Both the position numbers and the translations under genes were made by a program. DNA of 60,737 bases from Aquificales bacterium. GTDB lineage: Bacteria > Aquificota > Aquificia > Aquificales > Aquificaceae. Shown here one piece after another: positions 3,112 through 10,965 of this stretch; position 1 is the first letter of the stretch, and the number at the start of each line of letters is the position of its first letter. The notes below the pieces were generated by a model, which saw only the letters and a list, made by a program, of their open reading frames with translations, made no database searches and had not been told where the DNA came from. The stretch is from the NCBI GenBank assembly GCA_015487615.1, contig WFPJ01000121.1:1-60737 (forward strand), written 5' to 3'.

Positions 3112-3903
3112 ATGGCGCATGAAGAGGTCCACCACGGTCACCATGAAGTTAGCATGTGGCCCGTTGGAGTAGGGCTTGGTGCATTGTTTGGTGTTTTGGC
3201 TTTTACCGCATTTTTCCAGTGGCAGATGCCTTTCCTTGCAGTTATCTTCGGAGGTTTAACCGTTGTTTGCCTGCTTGGAGGACTCGCGGGTTGGGTAAAT
3301 GAATTCTTCACAACAGGACACGATGAGAAACATGGAAAAATAGCCATAGTTTTCTTCGTTGCCTCCGAGGTTATAGTGTTCGGAACAATGTTCGCAGCCT
3401 TTTGGAGAGCATGGGTATTTAACTCTCATGAATGGGCAAATTGGGTGCCTCAGGAGATGAATTTGCTTATGCCAGTTATACTGACCTTGATACTGTGGGC
3501 ATCAAGTGGAGCTATAGTCTTAGCAGAAAGGGCTATAGAGCATGGCAATGTGGGTGCCTATAATAAGTGGTTGCTTATTACAATAGTCTTGGGTACATTG
3601 TTCGTTATATTACACGTTATGGAATGGATACATCTTTGGGAGTCCGGTTTTACCCTATCATCTAATATGTATGGCACCGCATTTTATATGCTTACAGGTT
3701 TTCACACATCACACGTTTTGGTAGGACTTATAGCTATGCTCTACCTTCTTTGGATAGGTTTAAGCGGTAAGATTGATGAAACCAAGACAACCGCTGTTGT
3801 AGCAACAGGATTTTACTGGCATTTCGTTGACGTTGTATGGATGTTCGTTGCTACAAATGCATACTTTGTAGGATCAATACCTGCATTAGCCGGAGGACAC
3901 TAA
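3112..3903 (+). CDS. coxC: Cytochrome c oxidase subunit III
   Basis: 7 TM helices and the C-terminal FYWHFVDVVW motif typical of subunit III. Confidence 0.85.
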   Translation: MAHEEVHHGHHEVSMWPVGVGLGALFGVLAFTAFFQWQMPFLAVIFGGLTVVCLLGGLAGWVNEFFTTGHDEKHGKIAIVFFVASEVIVFGTMFAAFWRAWVFNSHEWANWVPQEMNLLMPVILTLILWASSGAIVLAERAIEHGNVGAYNKWLLITIVLGTLFVILHVMEWIHLWESGFTLSSNMYGTAFYMLTGFHTSHVLVGLIAMLYLLWIGLSGKIDETKTTAVVATGFYWHFVDVVWMFVATNAYFVGSIPALAGGH

Positions 3904-3921: not shown

Positions 3922-4716
3922 ATGAGAGGGGTGTTTCTTATTTTGATTACTGTTTTATCCCTTGCATGGGCGGTTAACACCCCTCTTGGTGTCCCTTATG
4001 ATGAAGACAGCAGTTTTGATGTTTCCATACTTCGCATAGATGAAGGTGAGCATTTAGGTAGGGAAATTCCTAATGTTGAAGTAATCCTTGAAAATGGGCA
4101 AACGAAAAAGCTCTGGGAAATAATTGGAGAGGAACCTGCCATTATAGTATTTGCCTATTACACTTGTGATGCGTCTTGTCCTGTTTTAGCGGGAAACATA
4201 TCCAAAGCTTTAGAAGTCATAAAGGATAGAGACTTTACCTTTATAACCTTATCCTTTGATGAAAAGGATACTTTAGAGACGATGAAAGCTTTTAAGGAGA
4301 AGCTGAAATATATACCCGATAATTGGGTGTTTGGATTACTTTCAAAACAGGATATAAAGCGCATTACCGAAGCCACTGGCTTTAGATTTTTCTATTCTGT
4401 TAAAGACAAGGCTTTTGTACATCCGAATGTGCTTATATTCATATCTCCCGATAAAAGAATAGTCAGGTATATATATGGGGTTAAACCAGATCCTAAGGCT
4501 GTAAGGATAGCACTTGCGGAAGCAAATACGGGGGAGTTGAAAATAAACGAAGTTGTGGATCTCGTCTATCTTGCTTGCTTTAGTTACAACGCCAAGAAGG
4601 GATCTTACATGCTAAATCCCGTTATGATATTGGGAGGTGTTGGCTTTATACTTTTGGGTTCAACTTTATTGCTTAGTGTTTTTTATGGTAAACTTTATGG
4701 AAGGAAGGAGGTGTGA
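3922..4716 (+). CDS. SCO1/SenC copper chaperone with an extra C-terminal TM segment
   Basis: Signal peptide, YYTCDASCP (CxxxC), a downstream His (FVHPN), and a C-terminal hydrophobic helix (VMILGGVGFILLGSTLLLSVF). Confidence 0.8.
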   Translation: MRGVFLILITVLSLAWAVNTPLGVPYDEDSSFDVSILRIDEGEHLGREIPNVEVILENGQTKKLWEIIGEEPAIIVFAYYTCDASCPVLAGNISKALEVIKDRDFTFITLSFDEKDTLETMKAFKEKLKYIPDNWVFGLLSKQDIKRITEATGFRFFYSVKDKAFVHPNVLIFISPDKRIVRYIYGVKPDPKAVRIALAEANTGELKINEVVDLVYLACFSYNAKKGSYMLNPVMILGGVGFILLGSTLLLSVFYGKLYGRKEV

Positions 4717-4719
4717 ACA

Positions 4720-5577
4720 ATGGTAGCCATATTGGTAATAGTTTATTTTGCGGTTACCACCCTGGTAATGATAGTAGGGCACCAACCCATACTTGAGGGC
4801 TATGAAGTTGCGAAAGCTACCGGTGCGGAACCCGGTCTTCAATGGTATTGGGGATTCAAAAATGTCTTTTACGTGGTAATGCTATACTTCTTTGTAATAG
4901 CCATACCTTTTGTTGTGTTTACCCTTATTTATCAATACAAAAAGGGTGAAAGGGAAGAAGGTGAGCATGCTTCCAAGCCATGGGGACCTATAGAAAATGG
5001 TCTTTTAATAGCATGGGGAGTTGCAGTATTTGCAGGAGACATATTCCTAGATTTCGTTTCTGAATCTGTGTTTGAATATCAAAAGAAAATTCCTGAGAAT
5101 GCTATGGAAATAGAAGTTACAGGTTCAATGTGGATGTGGCAGTTTAAATATCCCAACGGTAAAACACTTTTCTCTTTCTACAATCCTGCAACTGATAAGT
5201 TTGAAGAGTTCAAGGGTGGCTTTATAGTACCTGCAGGTGTTCCGATAAAGCTTTCTATGAAGTCAACTGATGTTATACATGCTTTCTATCTTTGGCCTCC
5301 AATTAACAAGCTACAGGATCTATACCCTGGAAGGGTAACCTACCAATGGTTTAAGGTGGACGCACCTGGAGAGTATTTAGTGTCCTGCAGGGAATACTGT
5401 GGTACCAACCACGCCTATATGCTGGCTAAGATATGGGTAGTCCCTAAGGAGGAGTTTGAGCAGTGGTATAACGGTCAAATAGCGGATGCGGATCTTATAA
5501 ACAAGTACTCAACTAAGAAATGGTATACGAAGCAAGCTAAGGGTGGTAATATAGAAGTAGCTAAGGTAAATAATTAA
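4720..5577 (+). CDS. coxB: Cytochrome c oxidase subunit II (CuA; no fused cytochrome c domain)
   Basis: Two N-terminal TM helices. CuA ligands are VIHAF ... CREYCGTNHAYM. There is no CxxCH anywhere. Confidence 0.9.
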   Translation: MVAILVIVYFAVTTLVMIVGHQPILEGYEVAKATGAEPGLQWYWGFKNVFYVVMLYFFVIAIPFVVFTLIYQYKKGEREEGEHASKPWGPIENGLLIAWGVAVFAGDIFLDFVSESVFEYQKKIPENAMEIEVTGSMWMWQFKYPNGKTLFSFYNPATDKFEEFKGGFIVPAGVPIKLSMKSTDVIHAFYLWPPINKLQDLYPGRVTYQWFKVDAPGEYLVSCREYCGTNHAYMLAKIWVVPKEEFEQWYNGQIADADLINKYSTKKWYTKQAKGGNIEVAKVNN

Positions 5578-5591
5578 GGAGGTGTAGTATC

Positions 5592-7202
5592 ATGAGGGAA
5601 GCTATCCCTACAGGGGTGCCATATTTTGGAGCCTCTCTGAAGGAGTGGATATTTACAACAGATCATAAAAAGATTGGCATTCTATATCTCGTCACCAGCA
5701 TATTGTTCTTCGTGGTGGGTGGTTTGTTTGCCCTCGGAATGAGGCTTGAGTTGACAAGTCCAGGTCTCCAATTCTGGAGCCCAGAGTTTTACAATTACCT
5801 CCTTACGGGTCATGGTGCAATAATGCTACTGTGGTGGGCAATAGGTGCACCCACCGGAGGATTCGGTAACTTCCTGCTTCCTCTAATGATAGGTGCAAGG
5901 GATGTTGCCTTCCCCAGGTTGAACGCCCTTAGCTGGTGGGCATATTTCGGTGCAAGTGTTCTTGTTCTTATAACCCTTATACCTGGTAATCACATAAAGA
6001 TGATGTGGACGGGATATCCCCCCTATGCTCTCAACAACGATGCGGGAAATCTTGCCCTTTATGTTTTCATAATTCACCTTCTCGGAGTATCTTCAATAGC
6101 AGGTGCTGTTAACTTCCTCACAACCGTTATTAGAATGAGGGCTAAAGGCTTGTCATATTGGAAGTTGCCCATATTTGTACATTCCATAATAACCGCCAAC
6201 GTTATACAGATACTGGGTGTGCCTTCACTTGCAGGTGCTGTAACAATGGATCTGTTTGACAAGTATCTTGGTACCGCTTTCTTTGATCCTGCAAGGGGTG
6301 GAGATCCGCTTCTTTATCAGCACGTATTCTGGTTCTATTCACATCCCGCGGTTTATGTAATGTTGCTACCCCCTGTTGCTATTGCAGGTGAAGTTATATC
6401 CGCTATGGCTAAAAACAGATTCTTCGGATATAAAGCTTATGTTATAGCCCAGTGGGGAGTTGTCGTATTAGGATTCATAGTATGGACACACCACATGTTC
6501 GTTACCGCTACCGCTGACTGGTTAAAGATAATCCAGTCCATAACAACAATGATGATAACGGTACCGGTAGGAATTATTGTCTTGGCATCAACGTTGACCC
6601 TCTTTAAAGGTGCCTTGAAGTTCAATACAGCAACATGGTTTGCTCTTGGAACCATATTTATGATTCTTCCTGGAGGTTTGACAGGAATACCGAACGGTAT
6701 GCTCGGTATAGATTACGGTCTTTCCGACTCTTACTGGATTGCAGGACACTTCCACTTTGTTCTAGCAATGATAATAACCTTTGGAATATTTGCGGGTCTT
6801 TACTACTGGTTCCCCAAATTTACAGGAAGACTTGCATACTCAGATGGACTTGGAAGCCTGGGATTCTTTGTAATGTTCATGGGTGCTATGCTTATATTTG
6901 GAATGCAGCTTATAGCTGGTCTTCATGGTATGCCCAGGAGATATGTTGATTATCCGCCCATTCCCGAACTCATAACTGCACATCACTGGATGACTGTTGG
7001 TGCGTTCATATTTGCTCTTGGAGTACTTATAACCTTTATAAACCTCATATTGGGTATGGTTAAAGGTGAGAAAGCGGATGCTAACCCTTGGGGTTCACCT
7101 TCCCTTGAGTGGTGGACTGCTTCACCACCTGCGCCTCATAACTTTGATAAGCTTCCCGAGGTAGATGAAGAGTGGCACCCCTACAACTACAAGAAGGCTT
7201 AA
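5592..7202 (+). CDS. coxA: Cytochrome c oxidase subunit I, A2-type (YS motif)
   Basis: LTGHGAIM (helix II His), FWFYSHPAVY (CuB His plus Tyr; YS replaces the helix-VI Glu), WTHHMF, GHFHFV, GMPRRY. Confidence 0.95.
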   Translation: MREAIPTGVPYFGASLKEWIFTTDHKKIGILYLVTSILFFVVGGLFALGMRLELTSPGLQFWSPEFYNYLLTGHGAIMLLWWAIGAPTGGFGNFLLPLMIGARDVAFPRLNALSWWAYFGASVLVLITLIPGNHIKMMWTGYPPYALNNDAGNLALYVFIIHLLGVSSIAGAVNFLTTVIRMRAKGLSYWKLPIFVHSIITANVIQILGVPSLAGAVTMDLFDKYLGTAFFDPARGGDPLLYQHVFWFYSHPAVYVMLLPPVAIAGEVISAMAKNRFFGYKAYVIAQWGVVVLGFIVWTHHMFVTATADWLKIIQSITTMMITVPVGIIVLASTLTLFKGALKFNTATWFALGTIFMILPGGLTGIPNGMLGIDYGLSDSYWIAGHFHFVLAMIITFGIFAGLYYWFPKFTGRLAYSDGLGSLGFFVMFMGAMLIFGMQLIAGLHGMPRRYVDYPPIPELITAHHWMTVGAFIFALGVLITFINLILGMVKGEKADANPWGSPSLEWWTASPPAPHNFDKLPEVDEEWHPYNYKKA

Positions 7203-7273: not shown

Positions 7274-7402
7274 ATGGACAAAGAAAAACAGAAAGCTGAT
7301 AGGATTACAAAGCTGATAGGTTACTCGTTGTTGATGTTTGTTTTTCTTTCCTATATACTATGGATAATAACCACCTATCTGAAGAGGAGAGGTATGTTAT
7401 GA
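7274..7402 (+). CDS. Unannotated 42-aa single-TM small ORF (MDKEKQKADRITKLIGYSLLMFVFLSYILWIITTYLKRRGML)
   Basis: SD GGGGGTGA (7260-7267) lies 6 nt before the ATG. One 23-residue hydrophobic helix has charged flanks. Its stop overlaps the ctaA ATG (ATGA at 7399-7402). It is absent from the ORF track because it is short. Confidence 0.45.
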   Translation: MDKEKQKADRITKLIGYSLLMFVFLSYILWIITTYLKRRGML

Positions 7403-8265
7403 CAAAGATAATACTCTTTATAGCCCTTGTATCAACCTACGTCCTGATGGTTTTTGGCGGTATAGTTACATCTACTGGTTCAGGACTTGGATGTCCCGAT
7501 TGGCCTCTATGTTACGGCACTTTCAATCCTCCTCCAAAAATGGATGCGTGGATAGAATGGGGACACAGACTGTTAGGTGCTAACGCGGGCTTATTTATAC
7601 TCTTATCCTTTATAAGTGTTTGGAAAAATTACAAGGGTCTACCGCGTTTCACTATAGGCGTTGCACTTATAATGCTTATAGTGGAAGTTATTCTCGGTGG
7701 AGTAGTAGTATTAAGGGAGGCGCCTTTGCTTAGTGAAGTTGAACATATGGTTCTTACTTCTTCTCATATAATAGTGTCTACAATTATACTTGCTTTTATA
7801 TCATTTACTTTATCCCTTATAGCTCACGAGAAAGGCGTGCCTATGCATGTGCCTTATGCTGTTCCTCTTTTCATTTTAGTATACATACAAATAATAATAG
7901 GGATAATAGTAAGATATACACAGTCTGGGCTAGCTTGTCCCGATTGGCCTACATGCCAGGGCCATATAATACCTCCCTTTGATAATTTCAATGTGTTTAT
8001 TCATTTTCTTCATAGGATAGTAGCTTATGCCTTGGTTATCTTTACCGGTTATTTAATGTTTAAGGAGTTGAACCCGAGAACGGGTATAACCTTTACACTT
8101 GTGGTCGCCCAGATGCTGTTCGGTATAATGAGTGTATTTTCTGGTTTGTTCCTACCGATAGTGTTTCACCACATACTTCTGGGATTTTTCCTTTTGGCTT
8201 GGGTTTCTTTCATAACAGCGCCCTATTTGTTCCCTAAGGGTGTTCAAGGGGAAGTTAGGGCATGA
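7399..8265 (+). CDS. ctaA: Haem A synthase (COX15/CtaA)
   Basis: Two CPDWP(L/T)C motifs and conserved His in TM helices (WGHRLLG, HFLHRIVAY). ATG 7399 has SD GGAGAGG, whereas the track start 7360 has none. Confidence 0.85.
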   Translation: MTKIILFIALVSTYVLMVFGGIVTSTGSGLGCPDWPLCYGTFNPPPKMDAWIEWGHRLLGANAGLFILLSFISVWKNYKGLPRFTIGVALIMLIVEVILGGVVVLREAPLLSEVEHMVLTSSHIIVSTIILAFISFTLSLIAHEKGVPMHVPYAVPLFILVYIQIIIGIIVRYTQSGLACPDWPTCQGHIIPPFDNFNVFIHFLHRIVAYALVIFTGYLMFKELNPRTGITFTLVVAQMLFGIMSVFSGLFLPIVFHHILLGFFLLAWVSFITAPYLFPKGVQGEVRA

Positions 8266-9146
8266 GCCTTCATAAGGTGGCGTATTATAAGAACACTCTA
8301 AAAGATCATGTTGTTTTAACAAAGCCCGGTATTGTAGCACTTGTCCTTGTCACTACACTTACCGGTATATATCTTGCCAATAGGGGATTACCGGATCCCT
8401 TTTTGGTTTTCTGGACACTTATTGGTACCGGTTTTGCCGCAGCAGGTTCTGCTGTTTTAAATAACTTCATCGATAGGGACATTGACAGGTTGATGGAAAG
8501 GACAATGTCAAGACCGACCGCTCAAGGTACTGTAAACCCGTGGATAGCTCTGTTTATGGGTTCGTCATTTATCCTGTTATCATTTTTTATCCTCTCTCAC
8601 TATGTTAACCTTATATCCGCTTTTCTTGCCTTCCTTGCCGCTTTTATATATGTAGTTCCCTATACTATTGTTACAAAGCGCAGGACCGAGTATGCGACTG
8701 AGATAGGCGGTATAACGGGAGCTTTACCGCCCGTTATAGGGTACACCGCTGTATCGGGGAATATAAATCTTGAGGCATTTATCCTATTCTTGATAATGTT
8801 TATATGGCAACCGCCTCACTTTTGGGTGCTTGCCCTTAAGTACAGGGAGGATTACAGGAGAGCAGGTGTTGCTACCCTTCCAGTATCAAGGGGAGTTAGG
8901 GAGACAAAGCTTAGAACCTTGTTTTATACCTTGCTTCTCCTTCCCGTAACACTCCTTCCCTACTATATGAATATGGCTGGCACTATTTACTTATACGGTG
9001 CAATAGTTTTGAACATCATTTATATAGTCATGACCATAAGGTTTGTACTCTCAAAGAAAGAGGTGGACATGAAACTATTTTTCTACTCCATTTTTTACCT
9101 TGCAAGTATATTTACCTTGATGGTTATTGATATGGTAAGGCTATGA
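8262..9146 (+). CDS. ctaB: Protohaem IX farnesyltransferase (haem O synthase)
   Basis: UbiA-family motif NNFIDRDIDRLMERT and 8-9 TM helices; overlaps the ctaA stop. Confidence 0.9.
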   Translation: MSLHKVAYYKNTLKDHVVLTKPGIVALVLVTTLTGIYLANRGLPDPFLVFWTLIGTGFAAAGSAVLNNFIDRDIDRLMERTMSRPTAQGTVNPWIALFMGSSFILLSFFILSHYVNLISAFLAFLAAFIYVVPYTIVTKRRTEYATEIGGITGALPPVIGYTAVSGNINLEAFILFLIMFIWQPPHFWVLALKYREDYRRAGVATLPVSRGVRETKLRTLFYTLLLLPVTLLPYYMNMAGTIYLYGAIVLNIIYIVMTIRFVLSKKEVDMKLFFYSIFYLASIFTLMVIDMVRL

Positions 9147-10441
9147 ACGGTATGGAAAGATACTGGTTTATCCTTTCTATAATTTCCATAGGAACTGGGG
9201 GATTTTTTGCTTTTCTTGTTGCAATGAGCAGGACACCTTTCGGTCACAGTATCTTTCCTGAGGATTATTTTTATCACGCCCTTGTGGGCCATGTAGATCT
9301 TGCTATAGTTATGTGGCTCATGTCTTTTACACTTTTGCTGTGGACAAAGCTTTTCGGAGAAGTTATATACGAAAAAGCGCTCCTTTTTATGGCATATCTC
9401 GGGTACATTTTGATAGCTCTATCCTGTTTCTTTGCCTTGGGTGAACCCATTCCCAACAATTATGTTCCCGTTATAGTTCATCCTTTGTTTTTTACAGGTA
9501 TAGGTTTATTTATTATTTCTTTTTCCTTAAAAACCTTTTTCTACATTAATGAGGCCAAGGAAGGTATATTTAGCTCTGATCCCTTAATTAACTGTGCATC
9601 CGCAGGTGTTTTTATATCTCTTCTTATGATAGTTTCTTATATCTTTTCCTTCTTTAAAGCAGGCTCTCCTTCTGAACCTCTCCTTTATTTTGAAAGATTT
9701 TTTTGGATCCCTGGTCACATACAGCAATTTTTGAACGGTTCTTTACTCCTTATGGCTTGGTACTATCTGATTTCATTAGAAGGTAAAAGTATAGAGTTAA
9801 ATATTATGAAATACATAAACACAATATTTATAATTTTTTCGTTAATAACTTTTTCCCTGCTATTTGTTTTTGAAGATCCCATAAGCAAAGATGCAAAACT
9901 GTGGGCTGAAATATCCTACGCTATAGGTTTGGGCATTCCCATATTTGTACACACCCTTAATATCCTTAAAAACTTTAAACCTTCCCTTAGCGTTTTTTCC
10001 GTTTCACTTGTCTTTTCCTTCTTGCTTTATTACTTAGGTATTTTGATAGCATATTTGGGTCTTAGCAACGATCTGAGGGTACCTGCGCACTATCACGGGG
10101 CTGTTACAAGTATAACCATAGCCCTTATGGCTATATCCTATAATCTTCTCAGGGAATACGGTTACAGAAAGGTTATAGGTAAAATTCCTAAAATTCAACC
10201 TTACTTTTATGGAATAGGAATGATACTTTTTGTTTTGAGTCTTTATTGGGCGGGTAGGGGTGGTGCGCCACGTAAAACCTATGGTGTTGATTTTACGGAT
10301 GACCCATCCGTTATAATATCATTGACCCTTATGGGTATAGGTACGGTATTGGCTGTTTTGGGAGGTGTAATGTTTGTTGTTTATATGCTAAGCTCCCTTA
10401 TATCACGGGAGAGGGTAGGTGTAAATGAAAAAGCGGGATGA
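9143..10441 (+). CDS. Divergent haem-copper oxidase subunit I-like membrane protein lacking the helix-VII His-His pair
   Basis: About 12 TM helices. It aligns by eye with coxA at YHALVGHVDLAIVMW (helix II His), FFWIPGHIQQF (helix VI His, Tyr replaced by Phe), PAHYHGAV (helix X HxH) and GAPRKTY (GMPRRY motif). There is no HH at the expected position. ATGA-coupled to ctaB. Confidence 0.6.
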   Translation: MNGMERYWFILSIISIGTGGFFAFLVAMSRTPFGHSIFPEDYFYHALVGHVDLAIVMWLMSFTLLLWTKLFGEVIYEKALLFMAYLGYILIALSCFFALGEPIPNNYVPVIVHPLFFTGIGLFIISFSLKTFFYINEAKEGIFSSDPLINCASAGVFISLLMIVSYIFSFFKAGSPSEPLLYFERFFWIPGHIQQFLNGSLLLMAWYYLISLEGKSIELNIMKYINTIFIIFSLITFSLLFVFEDPISKDAKLWAEISYAIGLGIPIFVHTLNILKNFKPSLSVFSVSLVFSFLLYYLGILIAYLGLSNDLRVPAHYHGAVTSITIALMAISYNLLREYGYRKVIGKIPKIQPYFYGIGMILFVLSLYWAGRGGAPRKTYGVDFTDDPSVIISLTLMGIGTVLAVLGGVMFVVYMLSSLISRERVGVNEKAG

Positions 10442-10544
10442 TGTTGCCATAGCAATAGCGGTGGCTATTGTTCTGTTTGTTCTTATATCTTTTTTCGTTA
10501 CTTTTCTTGTATCTTTTGTGCTCAGGAATTATTCGGGAGAATAA
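10425..10544 (+). CDS. Unannotated 39-aa single-TM small ORF (MKKRDDVAIAIAVAIVLFVLISFFVTFLVSFVLRNYSGE)
   Basis: The ATG lies inside the last codons of the preceding gene in another frame, with purine-rich GGAGAGGGTAGGTG just upstream. It has one clean hydrophobic helix and a charged N-terminus. Confidence 0.4.
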   Translation: MKKRDDVAIAIAVAIVLFVLISFFVTFLVSFVLRNYSGE

Positions 10545-10560
10545 GTTATAATGTAAGCAA

Positions 10561-10965
10561 ATGAAAGAAATACTTATATATCTCAGTTTAATAACCATAG
10601 CTATCAGTGGTTTGTCTATAATTGCTGGCATAATATTTATTCTCTTTGGAAAAAAACAGTGGCACCACAGGGCAATGATAAGTGCATGTATATTTGCAAT
10701 AATATTTGTGGTGCTTTATGTTATAAGGACCATGATAATACCTACAAAACCCTATGAAGGTCCAATGAAAGGTTTATTCTCCTTTATTTTATGGTCACAC
10801 ACTATTCTTGCTATAATTAACTTCCCCCTGGCTGTAGTAACAGTGAGGTATGCCTTTAAAGAAAATTTTGAAAAGCACAAAAAAGTTGCGCCTATTACCG
10901 CCCTTGTCTGGATATATGTTGCCATCACAGGGTGGCTCATTTATATATTCAATCTGATAGCATAG
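10561..10965 (+). CDS. DUF420 / CtaM-like 4-TM oxidase accessory protein
   Basis: 134 aa with the pattern HHRAM ... [16 protein letters not shown] ... [20 protein letters not shown] typical of DUF420. TATAAT (10547-10552) lies 8 nt before the ATG and there is no SD. Confidence 0.7.

Follow-up and report, generated by a model that had tools for sequence, protein, structure and literature searches.

Background

In the 12-family classification of the haem-copper oxidoreductases (HCOs), gNOR stands as the example of an enzyme in which an active-site histidine has been replaced (Murali et al. 2024, PMC11214002), and eNOR, which carries haem As in both of its sites, is diagnosed by a glutamine in place of the cross-link tyrosine (PMC8756737). 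Among the factors that help to build such enzymes, Surf1 has been reviewed as a haem a-binding protein with enzyme-specific paralogues (Surf1c and Surf1q); the way in which haem a and haem a3 pass from haem A synthase to their sites in subunit I is recognised as a gap. Here we describe a gene from an Aquificales bacterium, at positions 9143-10441 on the + strand of a 60,737-nucleotide stretch of DNA (contig WFPJ01000121.1 of assembly GCA_015487615.1, hereafter the window), whose 432-amino-acid product is a paralogue of HCO subunit I with 12 transmembrane (TM) helices and no CuB site. We tentatively favour the view that it is a non-catalytic paralogue, descended from an eNOR/B-type ancestor, that acts in the haem O/A (and copper) maturation of haem-A-type HCOs.

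The nearest approach to a description of this family is found in a preprint on Ferrigenium straubiae (bioRxiv 10.64898/2026.01.22.701106), in which gene 2878407321 is called an 'eNOR scaffold protein' 'of unknown function'. The gene is a 'hypothetical protein' in IMG and cytochrome c oxidase subunit I (K02274) in KEGG, is transcribed, and its product was seen in the proteome in amounts comparable to those of eNOR I/II. Its operon holds eNOR II, eNOR I, a third COX1-like gene, haem o synthase, Sco1 and cytochrome b/Fe-S genes, an arrangement termed 'a very common observation', and 'Cytbc1-like' genes near the eNOR cluster are also remarked upon. Members of the window family occupy the same position in the eNOR-type operons of four of our genome loci (L093, L090, L080 and L089), and because the Ferrigenium layout is that of L093, L080 and L089, the 'eNOR scaffold protein' very probably belongs to the window family, as judged from annotation and operon layout rather than from a comparison of sequences. 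The window copy differs in sitting in an A2-type cox-ctaAB-DUF420 operon instead of an eNOR operon. The preprint offers neither a ligand analysis nor a function and draws no connection with A-family oxidase/ctaAB/DUF420 operons; a family lacking two of the histidines is not mentioned in the main text of Murali et al. (2024) or its preprint, nor is the family mentioned in papers and reviews on cytochrome c oxidase assembly or in the Aquificales and Nitrospina genome papers. It appears that neither the prevailing link to A2-type cox-ctaAB-ctaM operons nor the ligand pattern or the spectrum of fusions has been described so far, and the family is essentially uncharacterised, at most named in passing by specialists.

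Fold and haem ligands

The protein has the HCO fold, with homology far exceeding chance. Pfam COX1 (PF00115) matches almost its whole length (46.7 bits, E 2.8e-12, the gathering score being 34.8); the only other Pfam family to match at E ≤ 1 is OAD_gamma, below threshold, and in the same scan none of Surf1, Cox11/CtaG, Caa3_CtaG, CtaM and NnrS does so. NCBIfam has no model for the family and returned no equivalog match. A search of the PDB with the single sequence gave nothing relevant, and a search with a family profile of 50 sequences (A1, also used for conservation and structure prediction) gave subunit I of Thermus thermophilus ba3 oxidase as its sole match (E about 1e-8). The AlphaFold2 model built on A1 (pLDDT 93.1, pTM 0.92) has 12 TM helices, the number expected of an HCO subunit I, and in Foldseek it matches subunit I with probability 1.0, B-family proteins ranking first (7DEG, 1XME and others, TM-scores 0.75-0.81), A-family proteins next and cbb3 clearly lower (0.57-0.65). 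Against three orthologues of 92% identity (L007-L009), dN/dS is ~0.07, and the gene is under strong purifying selection.

Ligands were mapped by three independent profile alignments, to ba3, to A2-type CoxA (A3) and to an eNOR-like subunit I (A4), and conservation was checked in the 50 close sequences of A1 and in 20 phylogenetically broad ones; the positions are given in Table 1. Both histidines of the low-spin haem (H50 and H318) and that of the high-spin haem (H316) are present, and of the six signature histidines of the superfamily four are invariant (H50, H192, H316 and H318). The three-histidine CuB/FeB site that would complete this 'histidine sextet' is lacking, with H192 alone present: at the end of helix VII, the 'HHQFADP' of ba3, the 'SAHHLLVDP' of eNOR-like subunit I and the 'WxHHLF' of A2 CoxA all align with 'xPFFxDP' of the family, no sequence among the 50 or the 20 has a histidine in these columns, and in A1 they hold L/V/I/M and P/L/Q/S. 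The variable, hydrophobic nature of these replacements points to relaxed constraint at the former metal site. It is matched by strict constraint elsewhere, family-wide invariants comprising R30, P32, H50, W67, Y107, P109, W188, G191, H192, Q195, W206, H316, Y317, H318, M329, Q352, R377 and K378. Judged by its aligned residues, the protein retains every ligand that two haems require, and a canonical three-histidine CuB/FeB site cannot be formed.

Two further positions deserve attention. The helix VI tyrosine of the oxygen-reducing A and B families is missing: the residue four after the histidine is F, I or V in A1 (tyrosine in 1/50), and in the window protein the cross-link position falls on F196 by strict counting, or on the invariant Q195 if a one-residue gap is allowed at ba3 P234; Q195 aligns both to ba3 Y237 and to Q229 of eNOR-like subunit I. 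H270, the only other histidine near the lost pair, aligns to ba3 T312, at a position analogous to the K-pathway, and to the invariant H306 of eNOR-like subunit I. Although found in 49/50 of the A1 sequences, it is kept only in Aquificota/Nitrospirota and eNOR-linked clades and is absent from proteobacterial members; it lies out of register for CuB and, on these alignments, is no substitute ligand. The 20 broad sequences contain no family-wide conserved cytoplasmic proton pathway. R30 was considered as a counterpart of the A-family arginine that hydrogen-bonds the haem a formyl; the alignments disagree on its register and no claim is made.

Within the superfamily, the family lies far closer to eNOR than to the oxidase beside which it is encoded. 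Profile-profile comparison with the eNOR-like subunit I (A4; 505-555 aa, reading GH(S/P)SQQIN, retaining the HH pair and with a CuA subunit II upstream) gave a probability of 99.9% (E 5e-32), against only 70% (E 4e-5) for the A2 CoxA of its own operon (A3). The family is best regarded, from these profiles and the helix VI pattern, as a branch of the eNOR/B-type lineage with 12 helices and with the histidine pair lost, a sister or derivative of eNOR and not a member of it.

Much of this had been anticipated from the letters alone. The original prediction of a 432-residue, roughly 12-TM subunit-I-like protein with the helix II, helix VI and helix X histidines and the propionate motif intact, no HH pair and an out-of-register H270 holds in every one of these particulars, and the profile and structural comparisons it proposed as a check found a subunit-I fold without two adjacent histidines in helix VII. 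Its statement that the cross-link tyrosine has become phenylalanine is right as to the loss and, as to the residue, depends on the alignment, the gapped version placing invariant glutamine there. Its alignment by eye was made with coxA, and the nearest relative is the eNOR-type/B-type subunit I.

Distribution and genomic context

The family is large. Word-indexed searches with Aquificota-type queries returned 259 and 293 relatives, a gammaproteobacterial query returned more than 4,300 clusters, and an exhaustive hidden Markov model search of 1.84 billion representatives returned 817 clusters at 50% identity (E ≤ 1e-30). In a scan of species-representative genomes it was found mostly in Aquificota, and also in Nitrospirota, Nitrospinota, Thermodesulfobacteriota and one metagenome-assembled genome (MAG) each of Acidobacteria and Bacteroidota. 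PGAP names homologues 'cbb3-type cytochrome c oxidase subunit I'.

Eighty genome loci were compared (numbered L below), the upstream side being testable in 72 and a downstream DUF420 gene in 70. In 61/72 the family gene follows immediately upon ctaA-ctaB, with a median gap of 1 nt and 28 overlaps, and in 2 further loci ctaB lies upstream at a larger gap, giving 63 after ctaB in all; in the remaining 9/72 an eNOR-like subunit I precedes the gene and SenC follows it. DUF420 lies ≤400 nt downstream in 25/70. All 72 testable loci are linked to an HCO, and no subunit II dedicated to the family gene was found in about 80 loci. Since the partners are the A2 aa3-type oxidase and eNOR, with its two haem As, every context joins a haem-A-type HCO to maturation genes, and such an enzyme plus its biogenesis genes is the common denominator of the family. 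Both kinds of copy occur together in five genomes, for example Hydrogenobacter Uz 6-8 (L024 and L080), giving one dedicated paralogue per enzyme, and in Hydrogenobacter the eNOR-type cluster with its paralogue runs on into nirS and the genes for making haem d1.

The arrangement varies. In Gammaproteobacteria the gene stands between ctaA and ctaB, on the strand opposite to the structural genes, in aa3 clusters where Surf1 and Cox11 are encoded as well. In Thermocrinis albus (L001, CP001931, 6279-9287) a ctaA-ctaB-family gene trio, followed by surE, lies away from oxidase structural genes within a 17-kb locus, from which it follows that this module can be uncoupled from the cox genes. L088 reads DUF420, family gene, ctaB; L093 reads eNOR II, eNOR I, small open reading frame (ORF), family gene, ctaB; and in L090 the family protein is fused to CtaB. 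Natural fusions (proteins numbered P) join it to CtaB/UbiA (P0340), SCO1 (P0141, P0142, P0144, P0354), a thioredoxin-like CxxC (CAPC) domain (P0397), CcmH/CycH-type TPR (P0345, P0385, P0441), bc-type cytochrome b (P0336) and a complete CuA cupredoxin (CSEYCGLDHNGM; P0419). Biogenesis components (SCO, thioredoxin, TPR, CtaB) outnumber those of electron input, and no signalling domain occurs among the partners.

In the window itself the ATG of the family gene overlaps the ctaB stop codon TGA as ATGA, an indication of translational coupling, and a small TM ORF and DUF420/CtaM lie downstream, all as first described, as was the absence of an adjacent subunit II of its own. The placement with ctaA-ctaB noted there proves dominant across loci without being exclusive, paralogues in eNOR/nirS clusters standing beside SenC with no ctaAB; the proposed synteny check therefore upheld ctaAB in most loci and DUF420 in a minority. 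The original failure to recognise a characterised family stands as far as characterisation goes, and not as to a name, which was very probably given in 2026.

The eNOR-type clusters have peculiarities of their own. Their partner enzyme was at first taken for sNOR; a glutamine where the tyrosine would be and the Ser/K-pathway residues that it keeps agree instead with eNOR. In Aquificota and Bacteroidota (L080:5328-6995; also L074, L071, L078, L081, L083 and L089) helix X of eNOR-like subunit I reads 'PGHFKG', with lysine for the low-spin haem histidine, and in Nitrospinota (L039) and in L093 and L090 it reads HFH. The former pattern suggests an altered low-spin haem site in the catalytic subunit, next to a CuB-less paralogue that keeps the canonical one. 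Helix 13 of the eNOR-like subunit I of 555 aa (C-terminus of L080:5328-6995, '…FEAPGTLTL…NWGWLAAMWEVR') is elsewhere a separate ORF of 42-48 aa (L093:6425-6553 and L090:2473-2619), where subunit I has only 505-509 aa. A fused cytochrome b/4Fe-4S/FlpD-like protein of ~650-700 aa adjoins the clusters in L080 (2498-4465, - strand), L089 (7718-9628) and L093 (8874-10982), possibly as a dedicated quinol-linked electron route to eNOR.

Possible functions

If the protein is, as we favour, a biogenesis factor built on a subunit-I mimic, it would bind farnesylated haem (haem O/A) from CtaB/CtaA in its subunit-I-like pockets and would then act as a membrane scaffold or hand-over station that loads nascent subunit I, probably alongside the SCO1/SenC protein, the small single-TM peptide and CtaM, in a logic that might be compared to that of NifEN. 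More speculatively, the family as a whole could be a missing, NifEN-like and catalytically dead membrane 'haem-a loading scaffold' of bacterial haem-copper enzymes which, with a tethered or adjacent SCO, passes cofactors on to the nascent subunit I in A-type oxidases and eNORs alike.

Several lines of evidence converge on this proposal. The invariance of haem ligands and propionate pair in ~70 sequences in which the HH pair is replaced supports a non-catalytic mimic, and a non-catalytic role is likewise supported by the want of a dedicated subunit II and of a family-wide proton pathway and by the clade-specific occurrence of H270. Linkage to an HCO throughout the testable loci, with the same pattern in Gammaproteobacteria and other MAGs, supports a place in biogenesis, as do the fusions to CtaB, SCO1, thioredoxin-like and TPR domains and the presence in the window of a SCO1 of the fused subtype (see below). 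One dedicated paralogue per enzyme within a single genome, as with Surf1c and Surf1q, argues for an assembly factor, and the use of haem A by both client types argues for the handling of haem O/A. The choice of the word 'scaffold' by HCO specialists, with transcription and detection in the proteome, is also counted in favour.

There is weight on the other side. A complete and invariant two-haem apparatus, with H192 and Q195, looks like that of a stable cytochrome and is not obviously needed by a transient chaperone, and the fusions to bc-type cytochrome b and CuA point to electron input. Genuine catalytic subunits, too, are typically encoded next to ctaB, as in cyoABCDE of E. coli. Coexistence with Surf1 and Cox11 in Gammaproteobacteria speaks against a simple replacement of either, a possibility we considered and rejected. 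Lastly, 'scaffold' in the preprint is a label and not a result, attached to our family through annotation and operon layout.

The two-haem apparatus and the electron-input fusions feed the main alternative, possible though doubtful, that of a copper-free, redox-active di-haem membrane protein: either an enzyme with a haem-only distal pocket (His192/Gln195) that reduces or transforms a small molecule such as NO, O2 or peroxide, or an electron-transfer module, serving for example the O2-dependent CtaA, with electrons from CuA, cytochrome c or quinol. That both haem sites and the propionate pair are fully conserved, together with H192, Q195, W188 and Y317, would suit such a protein, as would the helix VIII histidine that the window clade shares with eNOR-like subunit I, the two electron-input fusions, the cytochrome b/Fe-S genes adjoining eNOR-type clusters and the conserved small single-TM peptide after the gene, which real oxidases also have; altered HCO active sites, moreover, have precedents in gNOR (His to Asp) and NOD (His to Asn). 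Against this, we know of no HCO that works with one of three metal ligands, the replacements of HH are variable and hydrophobic, and neither a subunit II of its own nor a family-wide proton pathway is found; an autonomous enzyme would not be expected to be so strictly paired with a complete catalytic HCO, nor to show the greater number of SCO, thioredoxin, TPR and CtaB fusions. The original guess, a haem-handling scaffold or chaperone or else a new reductase, coincides with these two surviving hypotheses and is, on sequence grounds, partly supported.

An improbable third explanation would make the protein a structural, non-catalytic subunit that stays for good in the mature oxidase or eNOR, forming a pseudo-heterodimer with subunit I, stabilising it or belonging to a supercomplex, with haems that are structural or absent. 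The occurrence of one paralogue for each catalytic subunit I, its place in the operon and its translational coupling would accord with this, as would the proteome levels in Ferrigenium, similar to those of eNOR I/II, if the same family is concerned; HCO subunit I can also dimerise, the top Foldseek match (7deg) being a dimeric HCO. The gammaproteobacterial gene, however, is divided from the structural genes by strand and stands between ctaA and ctaB, the T. albus gene keeps company with ctaAB only, the characterisation of eNOR, as described in a text that lists no subunit composition, names no extra 45-kDa subunit, and invariant haem ligands are unnecessary for a purely structural role.

Very improbable is a membrane haem-based sensor of O2 or NO that tunes the neighbouring respiratory enzymes: diatomic gases would bind to a five-coordinate haem with His/Gln in its distal pocket, and the gene lies in operons of O2- and NO-reducing enzymes, but there is no output domain, no adjacent regulator in most loci and no signalling fusion partner, and the second, low-spin haem is unnecessary for sensing. 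Lastly, an ordinary terminal oxidase subunit mislabelled by divergence, as the 'cbb3-type' database names would have it, or a decaying pseudogene can be dismissed, being refuted by the lack of a ccoN or other equivalog match in NCBIfam, the place of cbb3 among the weakest Foldseek matches, the absence of HH and Tyr in every member examined, and a dN/dS of 0.07 in a family of about 817 clusters, which shows no decay.

The operon in the window

The gene order in the window is alternative complex III (ACIII) genes, cytochrome c, TlpA-like thioredoxin, COX3, SCO1, coxB, coxA, ctaA, ctaB, the CuB-less paralogue, a 39-aa TM ORF and DUF420/CtaM (Table 1), and coxA is presumably the client enzyme of the paralogue.

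Table 1. Genes of the cox-ctaAB-DUF420 operon and ligand positions of the CuB-less paralogue (window coordinates)
Feature	Position	Strand	Match or role
COX3, subunit III	3112..3903	+	Pfam COX3 E 7e-25
SCO1/SenC-type protein with C-terminal membrane extension	3922..4716	+	Pfam SCO1-SenC, weak (26.6 bits)
coxB, subunit II	4720..5577	+	Pfam COX2, TIGR02866
coxA, canonical A2-type subunit I (YSHPAVY, HH, HFH)	5592..7202	+	Pfam COX1 431 bits; TIGR02891 546 bits
ctaA, haem A synthase	7360..8265	+	Pfam COX15-CtaA E 6e-34
ctaB, haem O synthase	8262..9146	+	TIGR01473 306 bits
CuB-less subunit-I paralogue	9143..10441	+	
H50 codon	9290..9292	+	helix II axial ligand, low-spin haem; = ba3 H72; invariant 50/50 and 20/20
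H192-I-Q-Q195	9716..9727	+	H192 = ba3 H233, sole kept CuB-type His (helix VI); H192 and Q195 invariant family-wide
L239-L240-F241	9857..9865	+	helix VII end, expected site of CuB His-His pair; HH aligned here in three comparisons
H270 codon	9950..9952	+	helix VIII His (AlphaFold2 helix 249-277), clade-specific
H316-Y317-H318	10088..10096	+	helix X; H316 high-spin = ba3 H384, H318 low-spin = ba3 H386; invariant
R377-K378	10271..10276	+	haem-propionate basic pair, GAPRKT motif; = ba3 R449/R450; invariant
39-aa single-TM ORF	10425..10544	+	overlaps 3' end of paralogue gene by 17 nt
DUF420/CtaM-family membrane protein	10561..10965	+	Pfam DUF420 E 2.4e-33

The SCO1 protein deserves a closer look. 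By BLASTP it matches the SCO part of fusion P0142 at E 6e-31, its unusual C-terminal extension included; this extension, an amphipathic segment followed by a TM helix ('LACFSYNAKKGSY…'), is conserved in the Bacteroidota SCO domains fused to the CuB-less family, and the window SCO1 appears from its sequence to be a distinct SCO subtype, the same as in those fusions. Beyond the paralogue, ORFs of 38-42 aa with a basic N-terminus and one TM helix overlap the 3' end of the family gene in loci from Aquificota, Nitrospirota and Thermodesulfobacteriota (L003 and L006 included). Across the three phyla they are alike in placement and architecture, with weakly similar sequences, and the 39-aa ORF may be an unannotated small subunit. 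COX3 has a secondary, sub-threshold Pfam DUF420 match (E 2e-4, residues 121-240), probably reflecting a generic similarity between four-helix membrane proteins. Directly upstream of the cytochrome c/TlpA/COX3/SCO1/cox cluster, at 73-2122 on the + strand, lie the ACIII genes, in the order NrfD-like ActC tail, ActD (Pfam E 1e-32) and a 339-aa polytopic protein without a Pfam match; together with that cluster they form one long + strand respiratory supercluster.

Comparison with known systems

A large, conserved family that keeps its haem pockets, has lost its copper site and is tied to CtaB, CtaA, SCO1 and CtaM provides a concrete and testable candidate for the haem-a insertion step; should it prove redox-active instead, it would be the first protein of the HCO fold to work without a binuclear metal site. 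With either outcome the list of 12 recognised HCO families would grow by one, and a widespread misannotation would be corrected, by which homologues are named cbb3 subunit I or are tallied in metagenomic surveys as additional terminal oxidases.

Of the described systems, eNOR subunit I (Hemp & Gennis 2008; Murali et al. 2024) comes closest, sharing the helix VI GH-x-x-Q…N pattern, the lack of a cross-link tyrosine and the haem-A context and, with the Aquificota clade of the family, the helix VIII histidine. It has three active-site histidines, a CuA subunit II and a 13th helix. The window protein, with 12 helices, has the diagnostic glutamine (Q195) but only one of the three histidines, and lacks a dedicated subunit II. 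The best match among solved structures is B-family subunit I (T. thermophilus ba3, 1EHK/1XME; A. aeolicus 7DEG), with the same haem ligands and the corresponding basic pair (an Arg pair in ba3); H282/H283 and Y237 of ba3 have no counterpart in the window protein, nor has it a subunit II/IIa partner. gNOR and NOD set a precedent for substituted active-site histidines, but they exchange one histidine for a polar ligand and keep two, whereas the present family exchanges two for hydrophobic residues, and the window protein belongs to neither. Nor does it belong to cNOR/qNOR, defined by an FeB site with three His plus Glu and by C-family kinship, the histidine pair being absent and the closest relatives B-type/eNOR; or to cbb3 CcoN, with no TIGR00780 match, low Foldseek scores and no ccoO/P in any locus. 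The 'orf1' of ammonia oxidisers (norSY-senC-orf1) was considered as a further member and dropped, the Bacillus gene after senC encoding a ~190-aa, 6-TM protein of a different family.

Surf1/Shy1, Cox11/CtaG and CtaM resemble the family in genomic neighbourhood and presumed process, with no relationship of sequence or fold. A last parallel comes from nitrogenase, whose catalytically dead NifDK paralogue, NifEN, is the site at which FeMo-co is matured before its transfer. Fold and cofactor are unrelated and the likeness is conceptual: in both cases a catalytically incompetent paralogue, as the window protein would be, is encoded with the biosynthetic genes of the cofactor.

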